Assembly (NCBI GenBank): GCA_963782715.1
Contig: CAWAKU010000016.1
Coordinates: 391,425-455,424, forward strand
From: an uncultured Chloroflexia bacterium
Lineage (GTDB): Bacteria; Chloroflexota; Limnocylindria; Limnocylindrales; CSP1-4
Direction: 5' to 3'
Length of the DNA stretch: 64,000 nt
The position numbers were made by a program, and so were the translations under genes. Positions 4,113 to 51,323 of the stretch are shown here, one piece after another. Positions within the stretch are counted from its first letter, which is position 1, and each line of letters begins with the position of its first letter. Under the pieces are notes generated by a model. The model was not told where the DNA came from, made no database searches, and was given only the letters and a program-made list of their open reading frames with translations.

Positions 4113-6110
4113 TCAGAGTCGGCGGGCGAGTTCGCGTCCCTCGTAGAAGGCGAGACTGGCGCGCCGCGGTGCCACCGCGTCGCCGATCTGCTGGAACGTG
4201 ATGCCGTGGGCGGTGAGATCGGTGGCGAGGGCGGTCTCGGCGACGGGCGTCTCGGCGATGACGAGCGTATCGGCCTCGATGGTCGTTTCCGCGCTGGTCG
4301 TGTTGGTCCGGAGAGTCGCCGAGCCGTTCTGCCACGACAGGAGCGCGGTCCCGGTGATGGATCGGCCGGCGGCCCGCGCATACCGGGCGCGCAGCGGACC
4401 GTCGGCCGCGCTGTGGAACAGGCCGCCGGCCACGACCGGGGCCGCTGTCACGATCGTCACCTCGTGGCCGGTCTCGGCGAGGTGAAGCGCGGTCCCCAGG
4501 CCGCGCCAGTCGTTGAGGTCGTCGAGGACCAGGACGCGACGGCCGATCCGGCCCGCCGCCGTGCCGTCAAGCACGTCGTGGATCGCGACGACGTCCTCGT
4601 CGTCCACGCCGGGGAGCCGGTCGACCATCGGCAATGCCCGCTGGAACCCGGCCCGCGCCGGCCGCGCACCGGTGGCGACGACCACCTCGTCCGCCCCGAA
4701 CGACGCGACGGCGTCCGCCGTGGCGTCCGTGCCCAGCTGGACATCGACCCCGAGCGCCGCCAGCTGCCGGGCGTGCCACGCCAGCAGGTCCGTGATCTGG
4801 CCGCGCGACGGCTGCAGACCGGCCAGCCGGAACTGCCCGCCGAGCGCGCCGCTCCGCTCCCACAGCGTGACCGCGTGCCCACGCTCCGCCGCGACTCGGG
4901 CGGCCTCCAGTCCGGCCGGTCCCCCGCCGACGACCAAGACCCGTCGCGGGTCCGCCGCCGGCTCGAACCGGTCGCCGCCCCATTCGAACTCGCGTCCCGC
5001 CGATGGATTCACGAGGCACGAGATCCAGTAGTCGCGCGAGCGTCGACCCCAGCACAGCTGGTTGCACGAGATGCACGGGCGGACGTCGTCGGCATGACCG
5101 GCCCGTGCCTTCGCGACCAGGTGCGGGTCGGCGATCTGCCCGCGCACGATGCTGACCATGTCGGCATGCCCCGCGGCGAGGACAGCCTCGGCGGCGGCGG
5201 GCGTCCGGATGTGGCTCTCGGCCTGGACCATCGCGTTGCGGACGACCGCCTTGAGCGCGGCCGCGAACGGCTCGCCCAGCCGCTCGTCGTAGAGCGACGG
5301 CGGGATGATCTGGTGGAAGTCGAAGTACGAGCCGGTGCCGCAGGTGACGTAGTCCATGAGCCGCCGCTCGTCATGCCACGCCACGACCTCACACAGATCC
5401 GCGACGGACGGCATCGCCGGCGAGCCCGGATCCGCGCTGACCGCCAGCCCGACGATGAAGTCCTCCCCGCACGCCTCACGGATGCCGCCAAGGATCGCCG
5501 CCGAGAACCGCATCCGACCGTCGAACGACCCGCCCCAATCGTCCGTCCGGCGGTTCGACCACGAGCCCCAGAACTGGTCCACGACCGCGTGGTACGCGGC
5601 GAAGACCTCGACGCCATCGAACCCGCTCGCCCGCGCCCGTCTGGCGGCCGCGACGAAGCCATCGATCAGCTCGATGATCTCGGCCTCGGTCATGGCGTGA
5701 CTGCCGTCGGCGTCGTGGTACGACGGCAGGCCCGACGGCGACCAGTTGGCAGCGAACGAGTTGTCGGCGTCGCCGTGCTGGCCGACGTGATAGAGCTGGT
5801 GGATCAGCACGACGTCCGGGTTCGCCTCGCGGCAGGCGTCGGTGACCCGCCGGAACGCCGGGATGATGGCGTCGTCGCCGGGCCGGAAGTTGCCGCGGGT
5901 CAGGACGCCGGTCCGATGGATCGGCACCGGCTCCACGACGATCATGCCGGCGCCGCCGAGCGCCCGCTCCCGGTAGTAGCCGATGTGTCGCTCGCCGGGC
6001 AGGCCGTCCTCGGCCATGTTCGCGGTATGCGCGCCGAAGGTGATCCGGCTGCGGAGCGTGCGATGTCGGAGCTGGAGCGGTTCGAAGACGTGTGGGAACG
6101 CCCCCGTCAC
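4113..6110 (-). CDS. OYE-family FMN oxidoreductase fused to FAD/NAD(P)-binding domain, paralog 2 (StcD/DgcA/FadH-like)
   Basis: 665 aa. N-terminus MTGAFPHVFEPLQLRHRTLRSRI parallels paralog 1. It has the 4Fe-4S motif CISCNQLCWGRRSRDYWISC (C-x2-C-x3-C-x11-C) and GxGxxG (VLVVGGGPAGLEAARVAAERGHAVTLWE). The start codon abuts the stop of the upstream flippase-like gene. Confidence 0.85.
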   Translation of the reverse strand: MTGAFPHVFEPLQLRHRTLRSRITFGAHTANMAEDGLPGERHIGYYRERALGGAGMIVVEPVPIHRTGVLTRGNFRPGDDAIIPAFRRVTDACREANPDVVLIHQLYHVGQHGDADNSFAANWSPSGLPSYHDADGSHAMTEAEIIELIDGFVAAARRARASGFDGVEVFAAYHAVVDQFWGSWSNRRTDDWGGSFDGRMRFSAAILGGIREACGEDFIVGLAVSADPGSPAMPSVADLCEVVAWHDERRLMDYVTCGTGSYFDFHQIIPPSLYDERLGEPFAAALKAVVRNAMVQAESHIRTPAAAEAVLAAGHADMVSIVRGQIADPHLVAKARAGHADDVRPCISCNQLCWGRRSRDYWISCLVNPSAGREFEWGGDRFEPAADPRRVLVVGGGPAGLEAARVAAERGHAVTLWERSGALGGQFRLAGLQPSRGQITDLLAWHARQLAALGVDVQLGTDATADAVASFGADEVVVATGARPARAGFQRALPMVDRLPGVDDEDVVAIHDVLDGTAAGRIGRRVLVLDDLNDWRGLGTALHLAETGHEVTIVTAAPVVAGGLFHSAADGPLRARYARAAGRSITGTALLSWQNGSATLRTNTTSAETTIEADTLVIAETPVAETALATDLTAHGITFQQIGDAVAPRRASLAFYEGRELARRL

Positions 6111-7093
6111 GCGGTGGTCTCCTGCGCCGCCGCGGCTGCCTCCCGCCGTCGACGCAGCGCCACGAGCGCGATGACCCCGCCGATCGACGTCGTCGACAGG
6201 ATGACAAGGTGGACGAGCAGACCGAGCGCGAAGGCCGAATCGCGCGGGATCCCGAGGCTGTCGGCGATGGCCACGACCGTCAGCTCGAACGTGCCGACGA
6301 ACCCCGGCCCGGCCGGGACGATCGTGACGAGTGCCACGCCGCTGGTCATCAGCGCCGCCTGGGCGATCGTGAGTGGGACACCGACCGCCTGGCCAGCGGC
6401 GATGAAGGTGGTGATCGAGGCCGTCCAGGCCACCGCGCTGAAGGCGAGCGCCACGACCACCACTCGTGGCTGGGAGGCGACGGCAAGGCCCTCACGCAAC
6501 CGGCGCGCGAGCTCGAGCAGGCGCGGCCGACGTTCGATGATCGCAGTCACGCGGGCCGCCCCAGGCAGCCGGTGAGCGGCGATCCCGAGACCCAACACGA
6601 TGACCAGCAGTGAGACGAAAGCGAGCCCAAGGAGGACCGCACTGCTCATCGCCCCACGGACGCTCAGGACCAGGACCGCGATCGCAGCGATGGCCACGAC
6701 CATGATCGTGTCCACGACGCGCTCGACGACGACGGTGCCGAGGACCGTCGTCCGGCTGACGCCCTCGCCCTCGCCGAGCGCATGGCTTCGGTAGAGCTCG
6801 CCGAGCCGGGCCGGGAGGACGTTGTTGGCGAGATAGCCGATGTACGTGTAGCCCAGGACGCGCCGATAGGCGAGCGGCGCGATCGGTGCAAGGAGAGCCC
6901 GCCAGCGCGCCGCCCGTGCCCCGATATCGATGGTCGCGGTCACCAGCATGACCGCGATCCACGCCGGCGATGCGGTCCGCAGGACCTGGAATGCCGCGTT
7001 GATGTCGACCGAATGGATGAGGACCCAGATCGCGAACAGGCTGATGGCGATCCCGAGCGTCCCGCGGAGGAGCGCGCCTCGGCTGATTCGCAT
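6107..7093 (-). CDS. Flippase-like / lysylphosphatidylglycerol-synthase-TM-region (UPF0104) integral membrane protein
   Basis: 328 aa and very hydrophobic with about 8 predicted TM segments, resembling the UPF0104 family that commonly partners GT2 enzymes. Sits 8 nt downstream of the GT2 gene on the same strand. Confidence 0.65.
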   Translation of the reverse strand: MRISRGALLRGTLGIAISLFAIWVLIHSVDINAAFQVLRTASPAWIAVMLVTATIDIGARAARWRALLAPIAPLAYRRVLGYTYIGYLANNVLPARLGELYRSHALGEGEGVSRTTVLGTVVVERVVDTIMVVAIAAIAVLVLSVRGAMSSAVLLGLAFVSLLVIVLGLGIAAHRLPGAARVTAIIERRPRLLELARRLREGLAVASQPRVVVVALAFSAVAWTASITTFIAAGQAVGVPLTIAQAALMTSGVALVTIVPAGPGFVGTFELTVVAIADSLGIPRDSAFALGLLVHLVILSTTSIGGVIALVALRRRREAAAAAQETTA

Positions 7094-7100
7094 GTGGCGG

Positions 7101-7940
7101 TCAGTCCGGCCGGTGGCGGGCGTCGAGCTTGGGCGAGCGGCGCACGCGCAGTCGATGGAGCACGTAGCGGGCGACGACGCGGAGGGTCGACAGGCCGTAC
7201 ACGACGCTCCGCCGGAAGCCGACCGAAGACGCCTCCTCGAAGTAGCGAGTGGGCACCGCGACCTCGCCGATGCGGCCAGCCATGCCCGCCGCCACGACCT
7301 GGGCGATGAGCTCCTGGTCGAACACGAAGTCGTCGGAGTTGAGCTGGTAGGGCACGGTCTCGAGCAAGTGCCGGCTGTAGGCCCGCAGGCCCGTGTGGTA
7401 CTCGGACAGATGGAGCCCGAAGGCGCGGTTCTCGAGCCCGGTCAGGAAGCGGTTGCTGACGTACTTCCAGCGGGGCATGCCGCCGGCCAGCGGGTCGCCC
7501 AGGAAGCGGCTGCCGAGCATCAGATCGCGCGAGCCGTCGGCGATCGGCGCGATGAGCGCCGGGATCCGCGTGGCGTCGTACTGGTAGTCGGGGTGGAGCA
7601 TCACGACGATCTCGGCGCCGGCCGCGAGGGCCGCGTCGTAGCACGTCTTCTGGTTGCCGCCGTAGCCCCGGTTCTGGCTGTGGATGATGACGTCGAGCCC
7701 GAGCTGGCGGGCGATCTCGACGGTCTCGTCGCGCGACACGTCGTCGACCAGGATGATCCGGCCGACCAGGTCGTGCGGGATGTCGGCATAGGTCCGCTCG
7801 AGCGTCCGGGCGGCGTTGTAGGCGGGCATCACGACGACGAGTCGCGGTGGCGCGGCCGTCGTGTCGTCGAGCGTGGGCACGCGCGAAGGGTACCGCAGCC
7901 GGCGCCCCTCCCTGCGGGGACACCGAACCGTCATCGGCAT
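7101..7940 (-). CDS. GT2-family glycosyltransferase (polyprenol-phosphate sugar transferase, Dpm1/ArnC-like)
   Basis: VVVMPAYNAARTLERT...ILVDDVSRDETVEIA...VMLHPDYQYD motifs typical of GT-A fold GT2 enzymes. The exact start is uncertain. Confidence 0.8.
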   Translation of the reverse strand: MPMTVRCPRREGRRLRYPSRVPTLDDTTAAPPRLVVVMPAYNAARTLERTYADIPHDLVGRIILVDDVSRDETVEIARQLGLDVIIHSQNRGYGGNQKTCYDAALAAGAEIVVMLHPDYQYDATRIPALIAPIADGSRDLMLGSRFLGDPLAGGMPRWKYVSNRFLTGLENRAFGLHLSEYHTGLRAYSRHLLETVPYQLNSDDFVFDQELIAQVVAAGMAGRIGEVAVPTRYFEEASSVGFRRSVVYGLSTLRVVARYVLHRLRVRRSPKLDARHRPD

Positions 7941-7984
7941 GTGAGACGATGCGGGCCGCAGCCCAGCATCGGAGACAGCGTCCC

Positions 7985-8587
7985 ATGTTCGAACGACTCT
8001 TCGGCACCAAGGAGCAGGATCCCGCGATCGCGGAGCGCATCCCGCCCGGCCAGTACAAGACCGACAAGTTCCCGGTCCTGCACTACGGCTCGGTCCCGCA
8101 CACGGACCTGGCGACCTGGGACTTCAAGGTCTGGGGCGAGGTGGACTCGCCGTTCACGCTGTCCTGGAGTCAGTTCAAGGACCTGCCACGCAAGACCGTC
8201 GAGACGGACATCCACTGCGTCACCCGCTGGTCCAAGCTCGACACCACCTGGGAAGGCGTCGCCATCCAGACCATCCTCGAGCTGGCCGGCGTCCGCCCGA
8301 GCGCGACCCACGTCGTGTCGCACGCCGAGCAGGGCTACACCGCGAACGTGCCTCTGTCCGTGCTCGACGACGACGATGTCCTTCTCGCCGACACGTTCGG
8401 CGGCGTGCCGCTCGAGCTCGAGCATGGCTACCCGCTCCGCCTGCTCATCCCGAAGCGCTACTTCTGGAAGAGCAGCAAGTGGGTCCGGGGCCTCGAGTTC
8501 CTCGACCACGACCAGCTCGGCTTCTGGGAGCGCTACGGCTACAACAACGACGCCGACCCCTGGAAGGAAGAGCGCTTCAGCGAGTAG
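7985..8587 (+). CDS. Sulfite-oxidase-like molybdopterin-binding oxidoreductase (small cytoplasmic SO-family protein)
   Basis: 200-aa protein from internal Met (MFERLFGTKEQ) with the HCVTRWS Mo-cysteine motif and YPLRLLIP...YFWKSSKWVRGLEF C-terminal region characteristic of the YedY/SO family. Confidence 0.75.
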   Translation: MFERLFGTKEQDPAIAERIPPGQYKTDKFPVLHYGSVPHTDLATWDFKVWGEVDSPFTLSWSQFKDLPRKTVETDIHCVTRWSKLDTTWEGVAIQTILELAGVRPSATHVVSHAEQGYTANVPLSVLDDDDVLLADTFGGVPLELEHGYPLRLLIPKRYFWKSSKWVRGLEFLDHDQLGFWERYGYNNDADPWKEERFSE

Positions 8588-8656: not shown

Positions 8657-9508
8657 TCAGCCGGCGGAGAGTCCCGTGATGAGAGTGGCGAGTCGACGCG
8701 CGTCGGCGGTCCAGCCGGCACCGAGCGACAGCGCGGTCGCCTCGTCGCCGACGGCAAACCCCCCGGCGATGATCGGCACCGCTGGAGCCTGCCTGCGGGC
8801 CGCGGCGATCATCCGTCGTGCGGCTGGAAGGTGAGCAGTGACGGCCACGCTGACGACGACGGCGAGGAGGTTGTCCGACTCGGCCATCGCGGCGACCAGC
8901 GACTCCGGCGGGGTGTCGGGGCCCAGGTTCAGGACACCGTAGCCACCACCTCGCAGGATGTCGGTGAGCATCGTCACGCCCAGACCGTGACGCTCGCCGG
9001 AGGGCATCGCGACCAGCACGGTCCCTCGCTGGCGACCCCGGCGACGAAATCTCGGACCCATGCGGCCCACGATCGAGGTGGCGACCCCGCTGGCCACATG
9101 CTCGCGCTCGATGCCGATCTCGCCGTCGCGCCACGAGGCCCCGATCGCGTGCAGGGCCGGGCCCAGGACCTCGACGTAGATGTCGGCGGGTTCCATGCCG
9201 GATGCCATCGCCGCCTCCACGACCTGCCAGCCTCCCTCGACGTCACCCGCCAGCATCCGCAGGCGAAGTCGGTCGGACCACGGCGCCGCGGGATGGCGTC
9301 TCCCGCCCGCTCGTGGTGTCGACCCGGTCCGGGCGCCACGGGTCCGCAGGTCCGCGACGTCGTGCGGATCAACCCTCCAGGTCCCACCGACCTTCTCGGC
9401 CGGCAGCATGCCGAGCCTGACGTAGCGGTAGACCGTCATGTAGTGGACGCCAAGACGATCGGCGGCCTCATGCAGGGTGATCGACTCGGGAAGGCCGGGG
9501 GAGGTCAT
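8657..9508 (-). CDS. CarH/LitR-type coenzyme-B12-dependent light-responsive transcriptional regulator (MerR/excisionase-type HTH + B12-binding domains)
   Basis: N-terminal Xis/MerR HTH (ITLHEAADRLGVHYMTVYRYVRLGMLP). Four-helix B12-binding_2 domain with the CarH signature W-x9-EH (WRDGEIGIEREH). Rossmann B12-binding domain with ExHxxG (GERHGLG) and PIIAGG. Confidence 0.85.
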   Translation of the reverse strand: MTSPGLPESITLHEAADRLGVHYMTVYRYVRLGMLPAEKVGGTWRVDPHDVADLRTRGARTGSTPRAGGRRHPAAPWSDRLRLRMLAGDVEGGWQVVEAAMASGMEPADIYVEVLGPALHAIGASWRDGEIGIEREHVASGVATSIVGRMGPRFRRRGRQRGTVLVAMPSGERHGLGVTMLTDILRGGGYGVLNLGPDTPPESLVAAMAESDNLLAVVVSVAVTAHLPAARRMIAAARRQAPAVPIIAGGFAVGDEATALSLGAGWTADARRLATLITGLSAG

Positions 9509-9521
9509 GCGTCAACCATGG

Positions 9522-10313
9522 TCAGGGCGCGAGGGTACCCGCGAAGACCTGCCATGCGAGCAGCGACTTGGCAACGAGACTGAGGATGATGTAAGCGCGC
9601 TCCCCGAAGATGTACGAGCGCCAGCGGCCGACGCGCCGGTACTGGAGCCACATGTTGAGCGCGAAGATGTTGAAGAAGATGAACAGCGAGATGAAGATCG
9701 CGTAGACGAAGGCGGGCGGTTCGGCGGCGCTCCCGGGCGACACGAGGTAGACACCCACGGCCAGCCACGGGGCGATGCCGATGACGCAACCGAGCCAGAA
9801 CGGCCACAGGGAGCCGCCTGGCCCCTCGTACTTCTCCTGGACGGCTCCGAAGAAGATCATCGCGGCGTTGGCCGCGAAGATCCCGATGAGGGCTGCGATG
9901 TCGCTGATGCCGGTGAGCATGGCGATGAGCACGATCATCACCGATGACGACAGCGAGTACTCGGCCCAACGGTAGTAGTTGTGGCTAGCTTCGAGCCCGG
10001 AGATGTAGCGCCCGAAGATGCCCGGGGCGGCGACCAGCCAGTGGAAGCCCGCGGACAGGGCGAGGAAGAGGGCGACACCGAGGCCGATCGAGACCTCGAA
10101 TAGCGTGGTCGGAGCGCCGGCCGGTGTCCCTGGTGGACCCTCCATGAACGTCGCGGTGACGGGCAGGAGGAAGGCCGTGCTGAGAGCCACGATGGCGACC
10201 GCCTGCAGCGCATGGATGATCCCCATCCCGATGTTCCATCGGCGAAGGGAGGTGATCCGGGAGGCAGGCATGGCCAGCAGGGTGGAGGATGTGGCGGGGC
10301 TCGTGGCGGTCAT
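9522..10313 (-). CDS. Heliorhodopsin (inverted-topology 7TM retinal protein)
   Basis: 263 aa with 7 TM helices. Landmark residues match heliorhodopsin 48C12 numbering with a +11 offset: H34/H91 (48C12 H23/H80), counterion E118 in RWAEYS (E107), and Schiff-base Lys K249 in the last helix (LSLVAKSLLAW). N-terminal LRRWNIGMGIIHALQA motif. Confidence 0.8.
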   Translation of the reverse strand: MTATSPATSSTLLAMPASRITSLRRWNIGMGIIHALQAVAIVALSTAFLLPVTATFMEGPPGTPAGAPTTLFEVSIGLGVALFLALSAGFHWLVAAPGIFGRYISGLEASHNYYRWAEYSLSSSVMIVLIAMLTGISDIAALIGIFAANAAMIFFGAVQEKYEGPGGSLWPFWLGCVIGIAPWLAVGVYLVSPGSAAEPPAFVYAIFISLFIFFNIFALNMWLQYRRVGRWRSYIFGERAYIILSLVAKSLLAWQVFAGTLAP

Positions 10314-10334: not shown

Positions 10335-10367
10335 GGCGGCGGGACCGGGCGTACCGGATCCCGCCGC
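10335..10367 (-). terminator. GC-rich hairpin between fasciclin gene stop and heliorhodopsin start (putative intrinsic terminator)
   Basis: Perfect 10-bp stem GGCGGCGGGA...TCCCGCCGCC enclosing a second CCGG..CCGG palindrome. On the minus strand it is followed by TTCATTGATCG, so the U-tract is weak as expected in high-GC taxa. Confidence 0.45.
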
Positions 10368-10386
10368 CAGGTTTGGCGGAGGCTGG

Positions 10387-10932
10387 TCAGCTGGCCGGCG
10401 GCAGGATGACCTGGTCGATGACGTGGATGATCCCGTTGGAGGTCATGATGTCGGTCTTGACGACCTGGGCGGTGTCGTTGAGATAGACCTTGCCGTCCTT
10501 GACGGCGATGGCGATCTTGGACCCCTCGACCGAGTCGGCGGAGGTCAGCTTGACCACCTGGTCGGCGGTCACCTTGCCCGACACGACGTGGTAGAGAAGG
10601 ATCTTCTTGAGGGCCGCCGGATCGGCCAGCAGCTTGTCCAGGGTACCGGCCGGCAGCGCCGCGAAGGCGGCATCGGTCGGTGCGAAGATGGTCAGCGGAC
10701 CGTCGCTCTTGAGCGTGTCGACGAGACCCGCGGCCGTCGCGGCTGTGAGCAGCGTCTTGAACGTGCCGGCGCCGTCCGCCGTGGCGACGATGTCGCCGAG
10801 TGCTGCCGACGGGGCGGCAGTGGCCGGAACCGCTGTCGGGGCTGGGGTGGCTGGTTTTGGCGTCGCCGCGGTCGCGCAGGCGGAGACAGCGAAAGCCGCC
10901 ACCGTCAGCGAGATGAACATGAAGCGCTTCAT
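10387..10932 (-). CDS. Fasciclin (FAS1) domain lipoprotein
   Basis: Signal peptide with lipobox ([11 protein letters not shown]), Ala/Pro/Thr-rich linker and a FAS1 domain ([14 protein letters not shown]...ILLYHVV...[12 protein letters not shown]). Confidence 0.9.
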
Positions 10933-11005: not shown

Positions 11006-11034
11006 AGTATTTAGCACTAAATGCTTCCTGTCAA
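11006..11034 (-). promoter_or_regulatory. Sigma70-like promoter upstream of fasciclin gene (-35 TTGACA, 17-nt spacer, -10 AATACT) in an AT-rich island
   Basis: Read on the minus strand: TTGACAGGAAGCATTTAGTGCTAAATACT, followed by an AAGGGA Shine-Dalgarno 8 nt before the ATG. Contains a TTTAG..CTAAA inverted repeat. Confidence 0.4.
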
Positions 11035-11122: not shown

Positions 11123-11944
11123 CTAGCTGCGCCTGGGCCCCCGCAGCGACGCCGGGTCCGGTGCGAACAGGCGCAGCCGGTGGGCGAGGAGCGCGATCTC
11201 GCGGTCGAGCAGGCGGATGAGCGCCTCGAGGCGGACGACCGTGGTGGCCGCTTCCAGCAGGGCCTGCCGCCGCGGCAGCTCGAGCTGGACGATGCCCGAC
11301 AGCAGGTACGACAGGACGGTCGGGTCGTCCGGGATCACCAGGTCGTGCCGTCGGTCCGCCGGCGGCTCATCGGTGGCGGCGGCGGACCGGTCGGTCGCGG
11401 CGGCGGGCTCGGACGCTTCGATGTCGATATCGTCCTCGGCGTCGTCGGGCTCCGTCTCGGCGCCGCCAGAGCTGTCGACCTCGACCCGGATGTCGAGCAC
11501 TTCTGTCGTCTCGCCGTCGCGTGCCCGCATCAGCTCGAGGTAGCGCACGAAGCGGCGGATGGCCGAGGCTGACAGGCGTTCCGCGCGGGCCTCGTCGCCG
11601 ACCTCATCCTCGAGCGGCGTGACGTCGGCGATCAGGTACGGCTCGCGGCCAGGATCCACCGCCTGGATGGTGAAGCGGCCGGTGGCCGCCGCGAGCAGGT
11701 CGTAGCGGCCGTCCGGGTACCGCCCGGCCTCGCGGATCTCGACCAGCGCACCGACGCCGGCGAGCGCCAACGGGCGCGTTGCCGCGCCGACCTCGGCCCC
11801 CTCGCGGATGAGGACGACGCCGAATGGCTCACCGGTGTCGAGGCAGTGCCGCGTCAGCGCCCGGTAGCGATCCTCGAAGATGTGCAACGGCAGGACGATC
11901 CCCGGACACAGGACCGTGTGGAGCGGGAAGAGCGGGATCTCCAT
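11123..11944 (-). CDS. Lon protease N-terminal (LON substrate-binding) domain protein
   Basis: MEIPLFPLHTVLCPGIVLPLHIFEDRYR is the canonical Lon-N start. Contains an acidic insert. No ATPase or protease domain. Confidence 0.8.
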   Translation of the reverse strand: MEIPLFPLHTVLCPGIVLPLHIFEDRYRALTRHCLDTGEPFGVVLIREGAEVGAATRPLALAGVGALVEIREAGRYPDGRYDLLAAATGRFTIQAVDPGREPYLIADVTPLEDEVGDEARAERLSASAIRRFVRYLELMRARDGETTEVLDIRVEVDSSGGAETEPDDAEDDIDIEASEPAAATDRSAAATDEPPADRRHDLVIPDDPTVLSYLLSGIVQLELPRRQALLEAATTVVRLEALIRLLDREIALLAHRLRLFAPDPASLRGPRRS

Positions 11945-11956
11945 CGCCCCGCGAGT

Positions 11957-13579
11957 CTAGCCCGCCCCGGGCTCCAGCCGCGCGACGATCGGCGGCGGGG
12001 TGGCGGCCGGTCGGCGGACGGTCGGTCCGCGTTCGACCCAGGCGCGGGTCCGATCGGCGCGATCCACGGAGCTCGTCGCATCGAAGACGTGATGGCGGCC
12101 CTTGCCGAGCGCCTTGGCCTGGTACATCGCGATGTCTGCGTCGCCGAGCAGGTCGTCGACGCTGCGCATCGAGGCCGCGTCGACGGCGATGCCGATGCTT
12201 GCGCCGACTTCGACCGTGACCCCGACGACCTCGATCGGCTCGCTGAGCCGTCGCAGCAGGCGCTCGGCGACCGTGACCGCGAACTCCGGCCCGGGGATCT
12301 CGGTCAGCAGGACGCCGAACTCGTCGCCACCGATCCGCGCCGCGATGTCCGTCGCCCGAAGATCGCTGCGGAGGCGGGCCGAGACGCCGATCAGGAGTGC
12401 GTCGCCGGCGGCATGCCCGAGGCTGTCGTTGACGTTCTTGAAGTCATCGAGGTCGAGGAACAGGACAGCCATGGTCCCCGGCGCGGTCCGGGCGGTCAGC
12501 GCGGCCTCGGCTGCTTCGACGAAACGACGCCGATTGGTCAGACCGGTCAGCGGGTCGTGGAACGCCTGGAAGCTCAGCTGCGCCTCGAGCGCGCGACGCT
12601 TGGCGACGTCGCGGGCGAGCGTCCCGACCAATCCGGCCAACCGGGCGAGCACGAGCAGCGAGAGGACGGCGGTCCCGGCGGCGATGACCGCCAGCGTGCC
12701 GTCGGCGTTCGGGCCGATCGTGACGAGGATCGGCCCGGTCACCATCGCCAGGGCGAGGCCGGCCATCCGGACCGGCCCGAGCCAGGTGACCGCGACCGGA
12801 TGGGGCTCGGTCAGCCGACCCATCGACGGGTGCAGGGCGGCCGCCCCGAACAACAGGTACGAGACGAGGTAGAGGCTGTCGAGCGCGCCGCCGCTGACAT
12901 AGGTGCCGTCGAGGTTCTGGATGGCGTAGATCTGGTCCGCGACGAGCAGCACGGCGAGGCTCGCGCCGAGCAGCCGGAACGACGCGGTCCGGACACCTGG
13001 CGTCGTCAGCAGGCCCATGGCGACCCCGATGAGGATGAGGTCGGCGATGGGATAGGCCAGGGTGATGGCGAGCGACACTGTGTCGAGGTCGCTGTTGACC
13101 AACTGCGGCTGGATCAGGAAGGTCCATGACAGGATCACCGCGGCCGTCGTGAGGATCGCCGCGTCGAGGAGGCCGCCCCGGTCGCCGTCGCCGACGCGGC
13201 GGCGGATCATCATCAGCAGGCCGGCCGCGATGAACGGGTAGCCGGCGAGATAGAGCACGTCGGCCATCGAGGGAAACGGATCCTCGCCGACCACCTCGTA
13301 CCAGTTCCAGAGCAGGTCGCCCGCAACGAACAGCCCCTGGCCGATCGCCATCAGGATCCAGGGCAGCGGCCGATCCGGCTTGTTCCGCAAGACCCCGATG
13401 AAGGCCGCCGCGACGGCGGACGCACCGATGACGTCGTACAGCAGGCTCTGCGACAGGACGCCTGTCTCCATCGCGCGGTGGACGGCGAGCAACAGCGCCC
13501 CGATGGCGAGGTACGCCATCCAGGCTTGAACGCGCGGGTTGGTCGGTCGATTTATCAGGCGTGCAGCAGTGGGGTCCAT
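11957..13579 (-). CDS. Membrane-anchored diguanylate cyclase (GGDEF domain) with multi-TM N-terminal sensor region
   Basis: About 8 TM helices, then FHDPLTGLTNRRRF...IGGDEFGVLL (GGDEF active site) and DADIAMYQAK. The start is ambiguous between MDPTAAR and MAYLAIG. Followed 13 nt later by the Lon-N gene. Confidence 0.8.
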   Translation of the reverse strand: MDPTAARLINRPTNPRVQAWMAYLAIGALLLAVHRAMETGVLSQSLLYDVIGASAVAAAFIGVLRNKPDRPLPWILMAIGQGLFVAGDLLWNWYEVVGEDPFPSMADVLYLAGYPFIAAGLLMMIRRRVGDGDRGGLLDAAILTTAAVILSWTFLIQPQLVNSDLDTVSLAITLAYPIADLILIGVAMGLLTTPGVRTASFRLLGASLAVLLVADQIYAIQNLDGTYVSGGALDSLYLVSYLLFGAAALHPSMGRLTEPHPVAVTWLGPVRMAGLALAMVTGPILVTIGPNADGTLAVIAAGTAVLSLLVLARLAGLVGTLARDVAKRRALEAQLSFQAFHDPLTGLTNRRRFVEAAEAALTARTAPGTMAVLFLDLDDFKNVNDSLGHAAGDALLIGVSARLRSDLRATDIAARIGGDEFGVLLTEIPGPEFAVTVAERLLRRLSEPIEVVGVTVEVGASIGIAVDAASMRSVDDLLGDADIAMYQAKALGKGRHHVFDATSSVDRADRTRAWVERGPTVRRPAATPPPIVARLEPGAG

Positions 13580-13779
13580 GCGGTGACGGTGACCTCGACA
13601 GGCTCTCCCGGACCGCAGTGGACCGCCCATGGCTCCGCTGTACCGGTCCCGGAGGCCATTCGTCGTACGTCGGGCACAAGTCAGCGCGGGCGATGGAGCC
13701 GGAAACGACGAAGCCGCCGGTCGCCCGGCGGCTCGTGATGGCGCGATCCGGCCAGATGGCCGGTGCGACGCTCAGACGG

Positions 13780-14316: not shown

Positions 14317-15552
14317 CTAGGCCGAATTGTCCAGGCGCTCGACGATGGTCGCGATGCCCTGGCCGACGCCGATGCACATGGTGGCGAGTCCGTAGCGGCC
14401 GCCGGTCCGGCGCAGCTCGTGGGTCAGCATCGTGATGAGGCGGCCGCCGCTCATGCCGAGCGGATGGCCGAGCGCGATGGCGCCGCCGTTGACGTTGACC
14501 CTGGCCGGATCGAGCCCGAGCTCGTCCATGCACACCAGAGACTGCGATGCAAAGGCCTCATTGAGCTCGATCAGGTCGAGGTCCGCGACGCCGATCCCGG
14601 CACGCTCGAGCGCCTTGCGGGTGGCCGGCACCGGGCCGACACCCATGATCGCCGGGTCCACCCCGGCGACGGCCGTCGAGACGACCCGGGCGAGCGGCCG
14701 CAGGCCCAGCTCGCGGGCGCGATCCGCCTCGACGAGCAGGACCGCGGATGCGCCGTCGTTGATGCCGGAGCTGTTGCCGGCGGTGACGGTGCCCTCGGGT
14801 CGGAAGGCGGGCTTGAGCCGCGCCAGCGCGTCGATGGTCGAGTCGGCGCGCGGATGCTCGTCGCGGTCGATGACGAGCGGGTCGCCCTTGCGTTGCGGGA
14901 CGCTGATCGGGACGATCTGGTCGGCGAACCGGCCGGCCTCGATGGCGGCCACGGCCCGCTGCTGGCTCTCGAGCGCGAACGCATCCTGGCGCTCGCGCGG
15001 GACGTTCCAGCGCTCGGCCACGTTCTCGGCGGTCTCGCCCATCGAATACGGGTGATGGCGCTCAGCCAGGCGCGGGTTGACGAACCGCCAGCCGAGGGTC
15101 GTGTCCGCCATCTCGCGGGCGCCCCGGTCGTATGGCCCTTCGGCCTTGAGCTGGACGTACGGCGCGCGGGTCATCGATTCGACGCCGCCGCCGATGAACA
15201 CGTCGCCGTCGCCGACCGCGATCGCGTGCGCCGCGGAGTTGATCGCCTGGAGTCCGGACCCGCACAGCCGATTGACGGTCAGCCCACCGACCTCGACCGG
15301 GAAATCCGCCAGCAGGAGTGCCATCCGGGCGACGTCGCGGTTGTCCTCGCCGGCCTGGTTGGCGCAACCGAGGATGACGTCCTCGACAAGGGCTGGATCG
15401 AGTCCGGCGCGATCGACGACGGCGCGCAGGACGGCGGCGGCAAGATCGTCCGGCCGGACGCTCGCGAGCGCTCCGCCGTAGCGGCCGATGGGGGTGCGGA
15501 CAGCCTCAACGATCCAGGCGTCGCGCAGCGGCCGGTGGGTGTCTCGGGTCAT
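14317..15552 (-). CDS. paaJ: Acetyl-CoA C-acyltransferase (thiolase; beta-ketoadipyl-CoA thiolase PaaJ/FadA-like)
   Basis: 411 aa. [11 protein letters not shown], active-site [18 protein letters not shown] and [16 protein letters not shown] are all present. Confidence 0.9.
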
Positions 15553-15569
15553 GCCGTTGATGGTAGCGG

Positions 15570-16748
15570 CTATGGACGGGTCGCCCAGCCGGCGAAGGTC
15601 GAGATCGCGCCCGGCTCGTCGATGCGGACGGAGGTCCCAGCCCGGGTGTCGAGCCGGAACAGCCCCGCCGTCGCTGTGCCGGGATCGCCCATGCTGAGGA
15701 TCACCGCCGAATTGTCCGGCGCGACTCCGGCGATCGTCGCGTCGACCGTCGATGCGATGGTGGCGTGCTCGTCGGGTGTCGCTGGTTTCGAGCCCGTGGG
15801 TCGGACGATGCGCACCAGGCGGATGGTGTCCTTGCCCCCGAGGGTGACCCACTGCCCGGTGCCGGCGGCGTCCCACGTGTGATCGACGATGGCCGGGTCC
15901 GGGCCGGGCTGGCGTTCGATGAGCCAGGCGAGCGGGGTGTCCTGGCCCGCCCGCTGCTCGATGATCGCCCGTTCCGACGTCGTCGCTCCGTCCGACACCG
16001 AATCGCTGACGAACGCCCCGTCCGCGCCGTACGGCCGATCGCGACCGGTCGCCGGCCACGGTGGTCGTGCCCCGGCTGCGAACGTCCCGTCGAGTCCCAG
16101 GACGCCCGCTGTGGACGAATCGGTACTCCCGTCGTAGCGCGACGCCAGCAGGCCCGAACCGTCTGCAGCCCAGACGTCCGCGGCATCGACTCCCTCCGGG
16201 TCGACGATGGTGGTGGTCCGGCCGGAGGCCGGGTCGACGAGCGTCACTCCGGTCGCGTGAGTGATCGCCAGCCGGCCATCCGGACCCCAGGCCGGCGTCC
16301 CCGCGGACACGACGAGCGGCGCCCGCGCCGGTGCCTGGAGGTCGAAGACCAGCCGGCGGGCGACCGGATCGCCCCCGGCGGTCTGGTCGAACGGTCCTTC
16401 CACGGCGATGGTCAGGAAGCCGCCCGGGCTGACCCGGATCGGCTCGCCCTCGAGGATCGTCGTGCCTTCGGGAAGCCCGGCGACGACGTTCGGGATGGAC
16501 GCGACGGGAACACGGCGGCCGTCGGGTGCGACGGCCTCGACGATCAGGGCGCCCGTGAGCACGGCCGCGACCTGGGGCAGCGTGGCCACGAAGGCATCGG
16601 CGGTGCCGAGGTCGACCGCCGCGCTGGCGCTGGGTGAGGTGGTTCCGGTGGCGGTCGGGAGCGTGGACGCATCCGGGCGCGAGGTGGCGGTCGACTGGCC
16701 ACAGGCCACCAGCGACAGCGCGGCGAGGATGACCAGCGGGATGCGCAT
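15570..16748 (-). CDS. Secreted lipoprotein with TolB-like beta-propeller repeats
   Basis: SPII signal [18 protein letters not shown], then repeated DG..L....G..LVD blades. Embedded between paaJ and paaH. Confidence 0.65.
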
Positions 16749-16750
16749 CG

Positions 16751-18006
16751 ATCGTGGGACGCGACGGCCGCCCGGACCGTGACGGGCCGTCACCGAGGCT
16801 GCCGGCGCCGAGGCCAGCAATGGCGGTGCCGGGTCGAACCGGGGTCCGCGGCCCTCCTCGGCGCGGAGCGCCGCCAGCACGCGTCGCCGGACCACCGAGC
16901 TCGCGCGCCCGCTCGAACGGTCCGCTCGGGTGGTTCGCCCCAAGGCGCATCGCGAGGTCGATATGGGCCGGGGTCGCGACATCGTCACCGGCCGCCCGGT
17001 AGGCCTCGTTGACGACGGCCAGCGTGAGACGCCGGGCGATCGTGGCGCCGTCGAGTCGATCGTCGCGGTCTGTCGGCCGACCGAACCCCGGCGCAGGGCC
17101 GATGCGCTGTCCCTCGTCGTCGTACAGGTAGAAGCCCGAATCGGTCTTGCGCCCAAGGCTGCCGTCGGCGACCAGCCGCTCCTGGATGGGCGAGGGGCGG
17201 AAACGCTCGGCCAGCGGGTCGGCGGCGGCGACCGACCCGGCGAAGACGCCACGCGCCGCCGCGAGGTTGACGTCGAGGCCGACCAGGTCCATGAGCTCGA
17301 ACGGACCCATCGGGTAGCCGTCGGCTCGCATGGCCGCATCGATCCCCTCGACCGACGCGTCACCGGCCTCGAGCAGGGCCAGGGCCTCCAGGGTGAACGG
17401 CCGGTTGACGCGGTTGACGATGAACCCCGGTGTGTCACGACAGCGCACGGGGACCTTGCCCCACGCCGTCATGAGCGCGGTGGCCCGGTCGAGGATGGCC
17501 GGGTCGGCGGTGGCCGTCGCGACCACCTCGACCAGCGGCATGACCGGCGCCGGGTTGAAGAAGTGGAGGCCGATGACCCGTTCCGGGCGACGGGCCATGA
17601 CGGCGATGGCAGCCACCGACAGGGCGCTGGTATTCGTCGCCAGGATCGAGCTCGGCGGCGTCGACGCGTCGAGGGCCGCGAAGATGGCCTGCTTGGCCTC
17701 GAGATCCTCGAGCGCCGCCTCGACGACGAGGTCTGGCCCGGCGGCGGCGAGATCGTGGAGAGTGGGCGCCTCGTGGAGGCCGGCGAGCCGCTCGCCCACC
17801 CAACGGGTGGCGGAGTCGGCGTCAAGGTCCAGTCGCGCGGCGCGCCGTTCGAGGCCGCTTCGGACACGCGTCCGGCCGCGCTCGATGGCGGCCGCATCGA
17901 TGTCGTGGATCCAGACCTGGTGTCCCGCCTCGAGCGCGAGCTGGGCGATCCCGGCGCCCATCGTGCCGGCACCGACCACGCCGACCGGGTCGTGGCGATC
18001 GCGCAT
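16751..18006 (-). CDS. paaH: 3-hydroxyacyl-CoA dehydrogenase with duplicated C-terminal domain (PaaH/FadB-type). The 3' end is unresolved because there is no in-frame stop
   Basis: [25 protein letters not shown]-binding fold, [13 protein letters not shown], and two 3HCDH C-domains. The reading frame then runs without a stop through the lipoprotein and thiolase genes, forming the 1548-aa ORF in the track. A frameshift or indel is likely near 16.75-16.87 kb. Confidence 0.7.
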
Positions 18007-18008
18007 GG

Positions 18009-18557
18009 TCAGACGGGCTTGATGGCTTCGAACGGTTGACGGCAGTCCGCGCAGTAACGGATCGTCCGGCACTGGGTCGGCCCGAAGGCGTTCTCGAGGA
18101 CCGTCCGGCGCGAGCCGCAGTGCGGGCACGGGACGCGCGGCTCGAGCTCGATGAGGCTGGACGCGTCCGCGGGGCCGGGCGGAGCGATCCCGGCGGCCAG
18201 CAGCGCGGCGCGACCGGCGTCGCTGATCCGTTCGCTCGTCCAGGGCACCTCGAAGGTGGCCGAGACTGCGACCGGGCGCCCGAAGGCGGCCAGGCGCGTC
18301 GCGATCGCCGCCTTGATGAGCTCGAGCGCCGGGCAGCCGACGAAGGTCGGCAGGATCTCGACCCGGATGACGCCAGCCGCGTCGATCTCGACGCGATGGA
18401 CGATGCCGAGGTCGACGACGGACAGCATCGGGAGCTCGGGGTCGGGGACCTCCGCGAGGGCCGCGTGGACCGCGGCCTCGTCCGGGCGTGGTGTCCGGCC
18501 CGTGACGGCTCCGGCGCGCGCCCGCGCGATGCCGACCTGGGTCCCCGCCTCGCTCAC
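18009..18557 (-). CDS. paaD: 1,2-phenylacetyl-CoA epoxidase subunit D (PaaD; DUF59/SufT-like N-domain + C-terminal Zn ribbon)
   Basis: [19 protein letters not shown]59 motif and CPHCGS...CADC zinc ribbon. The GTG start overlaps the paaC stop (GTGA). Confidence 0.8.
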
Positions 18558-19321
18558 CAGCTCGCTCCCGGGTCCGACCGGCGGACCAGCGTGAATTCGC
18601 CCCACAGCCAGCTGAATGCCAGGCCGTGATCGAGCCGGCCGCGCTGCGGGTCGCTGGCGGCCGGTGGCATCGGCAGGCGGAGGCGTTCGAAGGCAGGCGC
18701 GATGGCGGCGCGCCAGCGACGTTCGAGCTCGGCGGAACCGGCGGCAAGGATGCCCGCCTCGAGGAGTGCCGGTTCATCGGGGAGCGGCGTGAACACGGTC
18801 GCTGCATCCGGGGCGAGCTCGACGAGCGCGGCCAGCAGACGGTCGCGCGGCTCGCCATCGGTCCGGGCCAGCCGGTCGAGCCACGCCGTCGCGTGCATCC
18901 GGTGATAGCGCTCCTCGCGGATGAGCTTCGCCGTGAGATCGGCCAGCGGTGCCCACGATCCACCGGCCAGTGCGTCGAGGCGGATCGCGTCGGCCGTGTC
19001 GTACAGGGAGCGGCGGGCGATCGTCATCGCCCAGTCGCCCCGGCCGTGGTCGAGCAGCCGGCAGTGGCGATAGGCGTCCGGCTCGCGGTCGTATGCCAGC
19101 GCGTCGGGGTCGGTGCCGGTCAGCTCGGCCAGCAGGCCGTAGAGCGCCGCGGCGTGGCCGATCTCGTCCTGGGCGAGGGAGCTCATCGCCACGTCCTCCT
19201 CGAGGAGCGGCGCGATCCCCGTCCATTCCGAGTCGGAGAAGCCGATGACGAACTCGTCATCGGCCATCGCCAGCAGGAGGTCGGCCAGGGCCGTGGTCGG
19301 CAGGGTGACCGTGGCGCTCAC
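18554..19321 (-). CDS. paaC: 1,2-phenylacetyl-CoA epoxidase subunit C (PaaC)
   Basis: 255 aa with the ferritin-like PaaC fold. Translationally coupled to paaB and paaD by start/stop overlaps. Confidence 0.8.
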
Positions 19322-19698
19322 TTCGACCGTGCCTTGGGCTTGGCCTGCCCGGACTGTTCGCGGGCGGCGGCGAGCTTGTCGCGCATGACGTAGCCGCCGG
19401 GCTTCTTGAACGAGCGGTCAAGCGGTGGCTGGAGGAGGTCCGGGTCGTCGAGGTCGAGGATGTCGGCGCGGCGGACGATCCACAGCCGGATGCTCTCCTG
19501 GCGCCGACCGAACAGCTCGCGGGCGTAGTGGATGGCCAGCTCGGCGTCGGGGGCCATGACGCTGCCACCGTGGCGCATCGGGTCGCCGTCCTTCTCGCGC
19601 CGGAAGACCTCCCATGCCTCGAGGACCGGTACGGGCCGGCCGGCCTCCTCGGCTCGGGTGGCCAGGCCGGCCGCGGCGGCCGGCTCGTCGGCGTTCAT
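19318..19698 (-). CDS. paaB: 1,2-phenylacetyl-CoA epoxidase subunit B (PaaB)
   Basis: 126 aa from MNADEP. VLEAWEVFRREKDGDPMRHGGSV...ELAIHYARELFGRRQES matches conserved PaaB. ATGA overlap with paaA. Confidence 0.85.
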   Translation of the reverse strand: MNADEPAAAAGLATRAEEAGRPVPVLEAWEVFRREKDGDPMRHGGSVMAPDAELAIHYARELFGRRQESIRLWIVRRADILDLDDPDLLQPPLDRSFKKPGGYVMRDKLAAAREQSGQAKPKARSK

Positions 19699-20681
19699 GC
19701 GGCCGCCGCGACGCCGAGGATCGTCTCGCGGACCCAGCGCGTCTCCTCGCGGGCGAGCCGCCGGAACTCGAGCCGTTCCTGCGACTTCGGGCCGTGGTTG
19801 GTCACGACCGTGCGCAGCTCGGCCCAGTCCGGATCCGCGTATCGCCACTGCCCGGCCGTCTCGTCGAAGCGCAGCTCTGGGTCCGGGATGACCAGACCCA
19901 GCTCGAGGATGCGCGGCACGTAGATGGTCAGGAACTCCTGGCGCAGCTCCTCGGAGGTCTTGGCCTTGATCTTCCAGTGCAGGTCACGGTCGGTCTCGCG
20001 CGGCGAGCGCGGGCCGTGCATCTGCATGAGTGGTCCCCACCAGCGCTCGAGCGCGTCCTGGATGGCCGCGCGTTGGGCCGCCGACCCGGTGACCATGGTC
20101 ACGACCACGTCGCGGCCATGCATGATGTGGACCGATTCCTCCCAGCAGATCTTGCGCATCGTCCGGGCGTACGGCGCGTAGCTGCTGTCGCGCAGCGCCT
20201 GCTGCGCGACGATCGCCGCGGCGTCCACCAGCCAGGCGATCATCCCGACATCCGCCCAGCCGACGGTCGGGTAATGGAAGACGTTGTGGAACTTGGTCTT
20301 CCCGGCCAGCAGGTCGTCGAACATCGCCTCGCGCGACTTGCCGAGGTCCTCGGCCACGCGATAGAGGAGCTGGGCGTGCCCGACCTCGTCCTGGACCTTC
20401 GCCGTCAGGGCGAGCTTGCGCCGCAGGGTCGGCGCCCGCATCAGCCACTCGCGCTCCGGGAGCACGCCCATCAGCTCGCTGTTGGCATGCATCTCGACGA
20501 AGCGCAGGACGGCCGTCCGGTACTCGTCGGGCATCCAGTCGGTGGCCTCGATCTTGAGTCCGGCGCCGACGTGCTCCTCGAACAGCGCGAAACGCTCGTC
20601 ATGCGGCAGGTCCTCGTTGAATGCCGGCCGGCCACGGTCGGATGGTCCGAGGATGGGCTCGAGCGCGAGCGGATCGGTCAT
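19695..20681 (-). CDS. paaA: 1,2-phenylacetyl-CoA epoxidase catalytic subunit A (PaaA, diiron)
   Basis: 328 aa. Diiron ligand helices (DEVGHAQLLY and EESVHIMHG) are present. Confidence 0.9.
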   Translation of the reverse strand: MTDPLALEPILGPSDRGRPAFNEDLPHDERFALFEEHVGAGLKIEATDWMPDEYRTAVLRFVEMHANSELMGVLPEREWLMRAPTLRRKLALTAKVQDEVGHAQLLYRVAEDLGKSREAMFDDLLAGKTKFHNVFHYPTVGWADVGMIAWLVDAAAIVAQQALRDSSYAPYARTMRKICWEESVHIMHGRDVVVTMVTGSAAQRAAIQDALERWWGPLMQMHGPRSPRETDRDLHWKIKAKTSEELRQEFLTIYVPRILELGLVIPDPELRFDETAGQWRYADPDWAELRTVVTNHGPKSQERLEFRRLAREETRWVRETILGVAAAA

Positions 20682-51320: not shown

Positions 51321-51323
51321 GTG

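Follow-up and report, generated by a model that had tools for sequence, protein, structure and literature searches.

We analysed a heliorhodopsin locus in a stretch of 64,000 nucleotides (nt) from an uncultured Chloroflexia bacterium (contig CAWAKU010000016.1). This whole stretch is called the window here, and its G+C content is 70%. Three consecutive genes of the locus lie on the minus strand. The first, fas1 (10387-10932), encodes a fasciclin (FAS1) protein of 181 residues, the second, heR (9522-10313), a heliorhodopsin (HeR) of 263 residues, and the third, reg (8657-9508), a regulator of 283 residues with a B12-binding module. The spacer between fas1 and heR is 73 nt long, and the one between heR and reg has 13 nt (9509-9521), which is too short for a terminator. 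The initial annotation of this DNA had placed heR and reg 14 nt apart on the same strand with no terminator between them; strand and missing terminator hold, and the gap is 13 nt. Past reg, the next gene is convergent and encodes a molybdopterin oxidoreductase domain protein (7847-8587, plus strand). Behind reg, the fold that would mark a terminator was not significant (z = -1.3).

The product of heR is a heliorhodopsin, as had been proposed. It matches the Pfam Heliorhodopsin profile (PF18761) over positions 1-242 of 242 with an E-value of 4.3e-98 and 327.9 bits (cut-off 26.7), and it passes the NCBIfam HeR equivalog NF038020 with 317.8 bits (cut-off 100). The alignment with 48C12 (PDB 6su3) covers the full length (E 3.5e-84). 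In this alignment, His34, His91, and Glu118 correspond to His23, His80, and Glu107 of 48C12 with an offset of +11, and the Schiff-base lysine Lys249 corresponds to Lys241. The lysine of the last helix, the glutamate counter-ion, and both conserved histidines of 48C12 are all present. The four landmark residues named in the initial annotation are thus confirmed, but its common offset of +11 does not extend to Lys249, where the offset is +8 because of two small insertions in 48C12. The FAS1 protein contains one Fasciclin domain (Pfam, E 1.3e-40), and a signal peptide with a lipobox (..AVSAC..), read from the sequence, marks it as a predicted lipoprotein.

The regulator consists of an HTH_17 domain, a flexible linker, a four-helix bundle with a Wx9EH motif, and a Rossmann-type B12-binding domain with an ExHxxG motif. 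The scores for HTH_17 (35.4 bits, cut-off 27), B12-binding_2 (46.8 bits, cut-off 23), and B12-binding (51.3 bits, cut-off 32.1) are above the Pfam cut-offs, and the B12-binding domains expected of this protein are present. Two further profiles, MerR (17.1 bits, cut-off 28.2) and MerR_1 (17.1 bits, cut-off 21.6), stay below threshold. By these profiles, the DNA-binding domain is of the HTH_17/excisionase type, with no threshold-passing MerR domain. An earlier description put both CarH hallmarks behind a MerR/Xis helix-turn-helix. The hallmarks are confirmed, and the type of the DNA-binding domain is corrected to HTH_17/excisionase. The Wx9EH motif is WRDGEIGIEREH at residues 126-137 (W126-x9-E136-H137), and the ExHxxG motif reads ERHGLG at residues 172-177. 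In the CarH/LitR class, Wx9EH makes the upper-face contacts to the 5'-deoxyadenosyl group. Across 27 aligned homologues (58-83% identical), W126, E136, H137, H174, S220, and G249-G250 are invariant, and E172 and G177 are kept in at least 90%. We also tested the base-off/His-on B12 motif, which is E/DxHxxG, about 41 residues, SxL, about 26-28 residues, and GG. The regulator has E172-R-H174-G-L-G177, S220, and G249-G250 at spacings of 42 and 26 residues. The four marks given for light-responsive cobalamin domains in the SignatureFinder paper (GxxW, EH, GxxH, and GxxxP; PMC11796333) are all readable in the regulator as GASW, EH, GERH, and GPDTP.

The AlphaFold model of the regulator has a predicted local distance difference test score (pLDDT) of 84.7, and disorder is confined to the termini and the linker at residues 60-73. 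In the Foldseek search, the best matches of the model were full-length structures of Thermus thermophilus CarH (TtCarH; 5c8f, 5c8e, and 5c8d), and the full-length CarH chains align with it over 281-289 columns at about 26-28% identity. The photocobilins and the CtMerR B12 domain come next, with a root-mean-square deviation (rmsd) of 2-3 Å in the B12 module. Judged from the model, the DNA-binding domains of the regulator and CarH appear related at the level of the fold while falling into different Pfam families. In a PDB profile search with the regulator, methionine synthase and the corrinoid proteins came only after photocobilins, the CtMerR B12 domain, and CarH. The light-sensing part of the regulator is CarH-like in fold and motifs. 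The family is large, with at least 1,263 proteins at E ≤ 0.001 among the matches listed, and the three-domain plan occurs in all but one of the best 120 of them. Many of the homologues carry the name 'light-induced transcriptional regulator' (JGI), and some are named 'Candidatus Limnocylindrales ... cobalamin-dependent protein' (NCBI).

The association of these genes is conserved in relatives. The contigs of two regulator homologues, 82% and 69% identical, both show the order Fasciclin, Heliorhodopsin, and HTH_17/B12 regulator, with differing outer flanks. We then surveyed two larger sets. The regulator-based scan of genomes, with one genome per species, gave 80 loci, mostly in metagenome-assembled genomes (MAGs) labelled Chloroflexia/Chloroflexota and Acidimicrobiia. 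Among 32 loci with a regulator at least 53% identical to that of the window (30 of them informative), 21 have a full HeR, five an HeR remnant, and four no HeR, and two end at a contig edge. Below 53% identity, the corresponding counts among 50 loci are two, none, 44, and four. The HeR-based survey covered the 80 closest metagenomic HeR loci, of which 66 had enough downstream sequence and 69 could be scored upstream. The regulator lies directly 3' of HeR in 45 of the 66, and FAS1 lies 5' of HeR in 51 of the 69, as it does in about 26 genome loci. In this metagenomic set, nearly all HeRs at least 76% identical to the window HeR have both partners, and most of those under about 65% identity lack both. 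The genes flanking the triad are not conserved. The HeR-regulator pairing occurs on dozens of independent contigs and is not due to chance. Across 57 related loci, the gap that separates the HeR stop codon from the start of the regulator has a median of -1 nt, and 29 loci have overlaps of 1 or 4 nt, which are a signature of translational coupling. Because of these distances and overlaps, heR and reg are almost certainly co-transcribed, as had been claimed. The transcription unit is larger than this pair and begins upstream with the FAS1 lipoprotein gene and its promoter. The initial annotation had recognised the HeR-regulator unit and had missed the FAS1 gene, the promoter-operator, and the internal hairpin.

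Several loci depart from this arrangement. HeR is lost or disrupted in six loci that retain the promoter-palindrome described below, FAS1, and the regulator (L003, L009, L016, L017, L019, and L022). A C-terminal HeR remnant of only 50-76 residues is left in L016, L017, and L019, and an N-terminal piece in L022. A second FAS1 copy lies between HeR fragments in L009, and L003 lacks HeR but contains two FAS1 genes. In L114 (349-2358) and L115 (3428-5437), a divergent FAS1 gene (40% identical) lies on the 3' instead of the 5' side of an HeR that is 82% identical, the regulator is absent, and a second partial HeR-like sequence (45% identical, residues 147-253) lies on the opposite strand 5' of HeR. 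HeR is also paired with divergent FAS1 genes (35-44% identical) in L097, L118, and L130. Some MAG labels in the genome set, namely 'Patescibacteria group', 'Bifidobacterium sp.', and 'Gammaproteobacteria' on the contigs of L032, L045, L052, and L055, are probably binning or labelling errors. The first of these loci holds the complete triad, and the other three an imuA'-linked or stand-alone regulator. The region directly upstream of the operon in the window (11123-13630, minus strand) encodes two proteins, one with a Lon N-terminal domain (LON_substr_bdg) standing alone and the other a GGDEF diguanylate cyclase with a membrane anchor. Synteny of the Lon-domain gene holds in L001 but not in L002.

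The promoter of the operon (11006-11034) lies upstream of fas1. It has a -35 hexamer TTGACA (11029-11034, minus strand), a 17-nt spacer, and a -10 hexamer AATACT (11006-11011, minus strand). This is the only sigma-70-like site between 8300 and 11400 (10 of 12 matches). A perfect palindrome, ATTTAGTGCTAAAT (11009-11022), in which the half-sites ATTTAG and CTAAAT flank a central TG, takes up the end of the spacer and reaches 3 nt into the -10 hexamer. We regard this palindrome as the candidate operator. It is unique in the window, and 100 shuffled sequences contained no match even with up to 3 mismatches allowed. The string TTGACA-N6-ATTTAGTGCTAAATACT was found again 5' of fas1 in relatives. In a column-by-column profile of 47 distinct promoters, conservation is limited to the -35 hexamer (cTTGACA is near-invariant), the palindrome, and the -10 hexamer, while the flanks and the 5' untranslated region vary. 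There are 36 exact copies of the palindrome in about 0.8 Mb of loci, against about 0.04 expected from base composition by a rough estimate. Most of these copies are intergenic and adjoin the regulator gene or its neighbours.

The palindrome also appears in other contexts. It lies with the promoter directly before heR in three loci that lack FAS1 (L024, L030, and L031), and it is found 5-120 nt upstream of four HeR genes with no adjacent regulator (L126:115, L133:1166, L141:1839, and L149:159). These four genes would be regulated in trans. In Acidimicrobiia, the related site TTTAG-N2-CTAAA (at most 1 mismatch) is located 20-60 nt 5' of stand-alone regulator genes, for example in L012, L021, L026, L033, L034, L038-L042, L049, L051, L053, L055, L056, L064, and L065. 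This position implies autoregulation. In L041 (6898-7541) and L056 (4526-5157), genes assigned by Pfam to extracytoplasmic function (ECF) sigma factors have two tandem copies of the site in front of them, 26-37 bp apart, and a single site lies just 5' of the ECF sigma gene in L065 (6805-7397). All three sigma genes are next to a regulator gene, and in L056 a heliorhodopsin gene (5465-6181) follows. Mainly because of this co-occurrence across contexts, we infer that the regulator recognizes the palindrome. The sites in Acidimicrobiia adjoin further genes as well, which encode a metallo-beta-lactamase-fold protein (L042:10708-11681), an NAD-binding protein with DUF2867 (L055:1213-2920), a DUF1475 protein (L012:10661-11147), and a DUF427 protein (L038:10625-11523). 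These genes are possible further members of a light regulon.

Between fas1 and heR, a GC-rich stem-loop (10335-10368, minus strand) folds with -36.1 kcal/mol (z = -3.85), and none of 200 shuffled sequences folded as well. A comparable hairpin of 11-15 bp is present in 57 of 58 distinct orthologous fas1-heR spacers (median z -5, median spacer 80 nt), and an alignment of 18 sequences shows compensatory changes at 9 of the 10 pairs of the consensus. The hairpin lacks a U-tract. Between the hairpin and the heR start, over roughly 35 nt, nothing conserved was noted by eye except a GAAGGA-like ribosome-binding site. The hairpin is probably a partial terminator or an element that stabilizes the mRNA 3' end, and in either role it would make the fas1 mRNA more abundant than the heR-reg mRNA. 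It qualifies the co-transcription of heR and reg with fas1 and does not overturn it.

This strong and conserved hairpin invites another explanation, in which FAS1 is the main regulated product and HeR a dispensable passenger, or in which transcription stops completely at the hairpin and heR-reg forms a separate constitutive unit. If either were true, the adjacency of HeR and the regulator would say little about HeR biology. HeR has been lost five or six times with FAS1, operator, and regulator retained, and FAS1 is duplicated in L003, L009, and L022, as would be expected if FAS1 were the product that matters. However, the operator-promoter stands directly before heR in the three FAS1-less loci, and the palindrome lies just 5' of the four HeR genes that have no regulator beside them. 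A separate heR-reg unit fits poorly with a hairpin that has no U-tract and with a hairpin-to-heR gap that shows no conserved feature beyond the ribosome-binding site. We consider both versions unlikely.

The wider regulator family has several light- or UV-related partners. Photolyase genes neighbour regulator-family genes in 15 loci, LitS-like sigma factor genes adjoin others, and a translesion cassette accompanies a sister subfamily. These partners fit a role in the light response. The sister subfamily (45-52% identical, Wx9EH kept) sits between an Nfu_N-like gene and an imuA'-imuB-like cassette downstream of it, in MAGs of Acidimicrobiia/Actinomycetota (L035, L037, L043-L048, L057-L060, L062-L064, L066-L069, and L071-L081). 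Its ImuA' scores 81.4 bits in NCBIfam (cut-off 65). This arrangement suggests a B12- or light-linked control of damage-induced mutagenesis. A search for another conserved palindrome or motif 5' of the imuA'-linked regulator genes gave only coding k-mers.

These partners also bear on the question of what the regulator senses. It might respond to B12 availability rather than light and repress the operon when adenosylcobalamin (AdoCbl) is plentiful, which would make the link to HeR a metabolic one. B12-binding and B12-binding_2 domains do occur in corrinoid proteins that are not photoreceptors, such as MtaC, MtbC, and MetH, although these are weaker matches. Photoreceptors are the best matches in both structure and sequence, Wx9EH and the remaining signatures of light response do not vary within the family, and the family partners, HeR included, are light-related. 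The operon contains no B12 metabolism genes. Scans of the whole window found no cobalamin riboswitch, no other Rfam family, and no tRNA, and a riboswitch therefore plays no part. We regard a pure B12 sensor as very improbable.

Taken together, we think it likely that fas1-heR-reg is a light-inducible operon with one sigma-70-type promoter and an AdoCbl-dependent autorepressor that is released by light. The palindrome is within the promoter of an operon whose last gene encodes the regulator, and the autoregulatory circuit gated by light that the initial annotation had suggested fits this arrangement. In the dark, the CarH/LitR-like regulator would bind AdoCbl through its B12 module and oligomerize, and its HTH_17 domains would occupy ATTTAGTGCTAAAT. 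As the palindrome overlaps the spacer and the -10 hexamer, RNA polymerase would be excluded. Light from the ultraviolet to green would break the Co-C bond, the repressor would leave the DNA, and the operon would be transcribed. Transcription would yield the FAS1 surface lipoprotein and, by read-through of the hairpin, a smaller amount of heliorhodopsin and new regulator. The new regulator would close the loop again, giving negative autoregulation. In this circuit, HeR is most likely an output of a B12-based light response that is made when light is available, and not a second input.

Several observations weigh against this circuit. The DNA-binding domain is of the HTH_17 type, whereas the characterized CarH and LitR proteins are of the MerR type. 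The regulator scores 71.7 bits with the NCBIfam CarH equivalog NF052513 against a cut-off of 400, and the match is limited to residues 48-275, the B12 part. This low score and the sub-threshold MerR profiles are the reasons why we place the regulator in a separate subfamily and do not regard it as a CarH orthologue. The SxL element of the B12 motif is S-V-A in the window regulator and S-V-V in the family consensus, so a strict regular expression fails. The operator of TtCarH comprises three 11-bp direct repeats, whereas the candidate operator here is a single 14-bp palindrome, and the stoichiometry may differ. The recognition-helix core LGVHYMT(A)YRYVRLG is common to the regulator and the imuA'-linked sister subfamily, but no such palindrome occurs within 6 kb on either side of the genes of that subfamily. 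The hairpin could be a real terminator, in which case heR and reg would need another promoter, and none is conserved. Among 35 window proteins scanned against Pfam, there are no carotenoid (crt), retinal (blh), or B12 genes. The same scan found no photolyase, and the operon itself has no crt-type genes.

The tight translational coupling of heR and reg favours production of the two proteins in equimolar amounts, and they might also form a physical signalling pair. Light-activated HeR would then bind the regulator at the membrane and alter its DNA binding, which is compatible with the light-released operon. Two photoreceptors would be integrated in this way, as in the two-colour idea of the initial annotation. 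HeRs have been reported to bind and modulate proteins encoded in the same operon, namely glutamine synthetase (GS; PMC9529153), photolyase (PMC9769723), and an ABC transporter (PMC11109279), and a type-1 rhodopsin has been reported to regulate a helix-turn-helix transcription factor (PMC11217422). Nevertheless, the regulator, promoter, operator, and FAS1 gene persist in the six loci where HeR is deleted or disrupted, and the regulator is widespread with no HeR nearby (44 of the 50 more distant loci). The regulator also has a complete CarH-type light-sensing module of its own, and both chromophores absorb green light, which leaves little spectral complementarity. A physical pair is thus improbable in our judgement.

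Two proposed links to HeR were rejected as unsupported. One was the two-colour sensing module made of HeR and the regulator. CarH with AdoCbl and heliorhodopsins both respond to green light. We found no evidence for such a module, and HeR as a target of the regulator, rather than a co-sensor, is the simplest reading. The other was a GS-family partner 20 kb downstream. The gene is there (30732-32141, plus strand) and its product matches Gln-synt_C only, staying below the cut-off in every NCBIfam glutamine-synthetase model. It lies on the other strand, 20 kb away and after an amino-acid permease gene, and it is not syntenic with HeR in relatives. Published operons of HeR and GS have 25-36 nt between the two genes (Cho et al. 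2024, PMC11109279).

The conserved FAS1 gene raises the idea that the triad is a functional light module. The FAS1 lipoprotein would work with HeR on the outer side of the membrane, and the B12 photoreceptor would time the production of both. By analogy with AstaP, a FAS1 protein that binds carotenoids, FAS1 might hold or hand over a retinoid or carotenoid chromophore, or it might be an extracellular partner of HeR. The adjacency of FAS1 and HeR recurs with divergent FAS1 genes and in another gene order (L097, L114, L115, L118, and L130), genes outside the triad are not conserved, and HeR genomes reportedly seldom carry blh, all of which favour the idea. On the other hand, fas1 and heR each occur without the other, and the window FAS1 resembles generic adhesion-type FAS1 domains. 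Its PDB relatives are FAS1 domains including TGFBIp, the Rhodobacter FAS1 protein 1w7d, and CupS, and AstaP is matched only at E 8e-12. A functional module of this kind seems doubtful to us, and we assign a low probability to an AstaP-like carotenoprotein because generic FAS1 domains match far better.

The remaining scanned proteins of the window belong to ordinary metabolism, with phenylacetate catabolism, beta-oxidation, and purine genes among them. Two paralogous Oxidored_FMN and Pyr_redox_2 flavoenzymes with a 2,4-dienoyl-CoA-reductase-like architecture are encoded 1.3 kb apart (422-2788 and 4113-6110, minus strand). A single open frame of 1,548 residues (14317-20681, minus strand) combines domains of 3-hydroxyacyl-CoA dehydrogenase and thiolase, and PaaA/PaaC phenylacetate genes come next. 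The frame may be a genuine fusion or, in this high-GC sequence, a run of separate genes that appear as one. A 593-residue open reading frame (50505-52286, plus strand) has an unusual architecture, in which two universal stress protein (Usp) domains come after a partial ABC ATPase domain.

The function of heliorhodopsin is debated, and the proposals to date derive from proteins encoded alongside it. Here, an HeR clade of Chloroflexota and some Acidimicrobiia lies behind a candidate operator of the B12-photoreceptor type, so its genes are predicted to be light-induced. With one promoter, one 14-bp site, and one regulator, the system is simple and testable. The conserved secreted FAS1 lipoprotein is an HeR partner that has been unreported so far, and no paper in the literature searched combines heliorhodopsin and fasciclin. 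The CarH/LitR idea is extended to a large HTH_17-type subfamily with at least 1,263 homologues, a new candidate operator, and non-carotenoid targets. This subfamily could yield green-light-responsive parts for synthetic biology. A substantive pairing of heliorhodopsin with LitR, CarH, or cobalamin was not found in the literature searched. The promoter-operator, the FAS1 partner, the internal hairpin, and the HTH_17-type LitR-like subfamily with non-carotenoid targets are likewise not described there and are new.

Two bulk surveys of gene neighbourhoods had given earlier hints of the pairing of HeR and the regulator. In Cho et al. (2024; PMC11109279), a 'MerR family transcriptional regulator' is one of ten partners that are frequent in HeR operons, and the authors take these partners to be proteins bound by HeR rather than proteins that regulate heR. 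Chazan et al. (2021; bioRxiv 10.1101/2021.02.16.431466) name 'cobalamin-binding proteins' among light-using families near HeR genes and also near proton-pump genes. The accessible text of these two surveys describes no B12-photoreceptor regulator of heR, no operator, and no FAS1 gene.

Among characterized systems, the CarH proteins of Thermus thermophilus, Myxococcus xanthus, and Bacillus megaterium share the plan of the regulator, with a small winged-helix domain, a Wx9EH four-helix bundle, and an ExHxxG Rossmann B12 domain. CarH operators lie over the promoters of light-induced genes, among which the gene of the regulator itself is often found, and the candidate operator here is placed in the operon promoter in the same way. 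The differences lie in the DNA-binding domain, which is of the MerR type in CarH and of the HTH_17/excisionase type in the regulator, in the score far under the CarH equivalog cut-off, and in the targets. CarH controls carotenoid genes, whereas the predicted targets of the window regulator are a FAS1 lipoprotein and heliorhodopsin. In the LitR-LitS system of Streptomyces, a B12-dependent MerR-type regulator controls an adjacent ECF sigma factor (PMC11519972, PMC6739363). The Acidimicrobiia loci in which regulator genes adjoin palindrome-preceded ECF sigma genes (L041, L056, and L065) resemble this system. The window operon differs from it in having no sigma factor, so regulation appears to be direct, and in the type of DNA-binding domain and the regulon.

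For FAS1, the closest comparison is AstaP, a secreted, carotenoid-binding FAS1 protein of green algae that is induced by photooxidative stress and is described as a neofunctionalized exception among FAS1 domains (PMC10147662, PMC7477208). Both are secreted FAS1-domain proteins, and the production of AstaP rises under light stress. However, the window FAS1 is much closer to generic FAS1, and carotenoid or retinal binding by it would be pure speculation. The photocobilins and the CtMerR B12 domain (8j2w, 8j2x, 8j2y, and 8jbs) gave the best sequence-profile matches to the B12 module, and in the regulator model the superposition noted above covers about 205 residues. Their output domains differ (globin-like, GGDEF, and MerR), and none has been reported in a heliorhodopsin operon.

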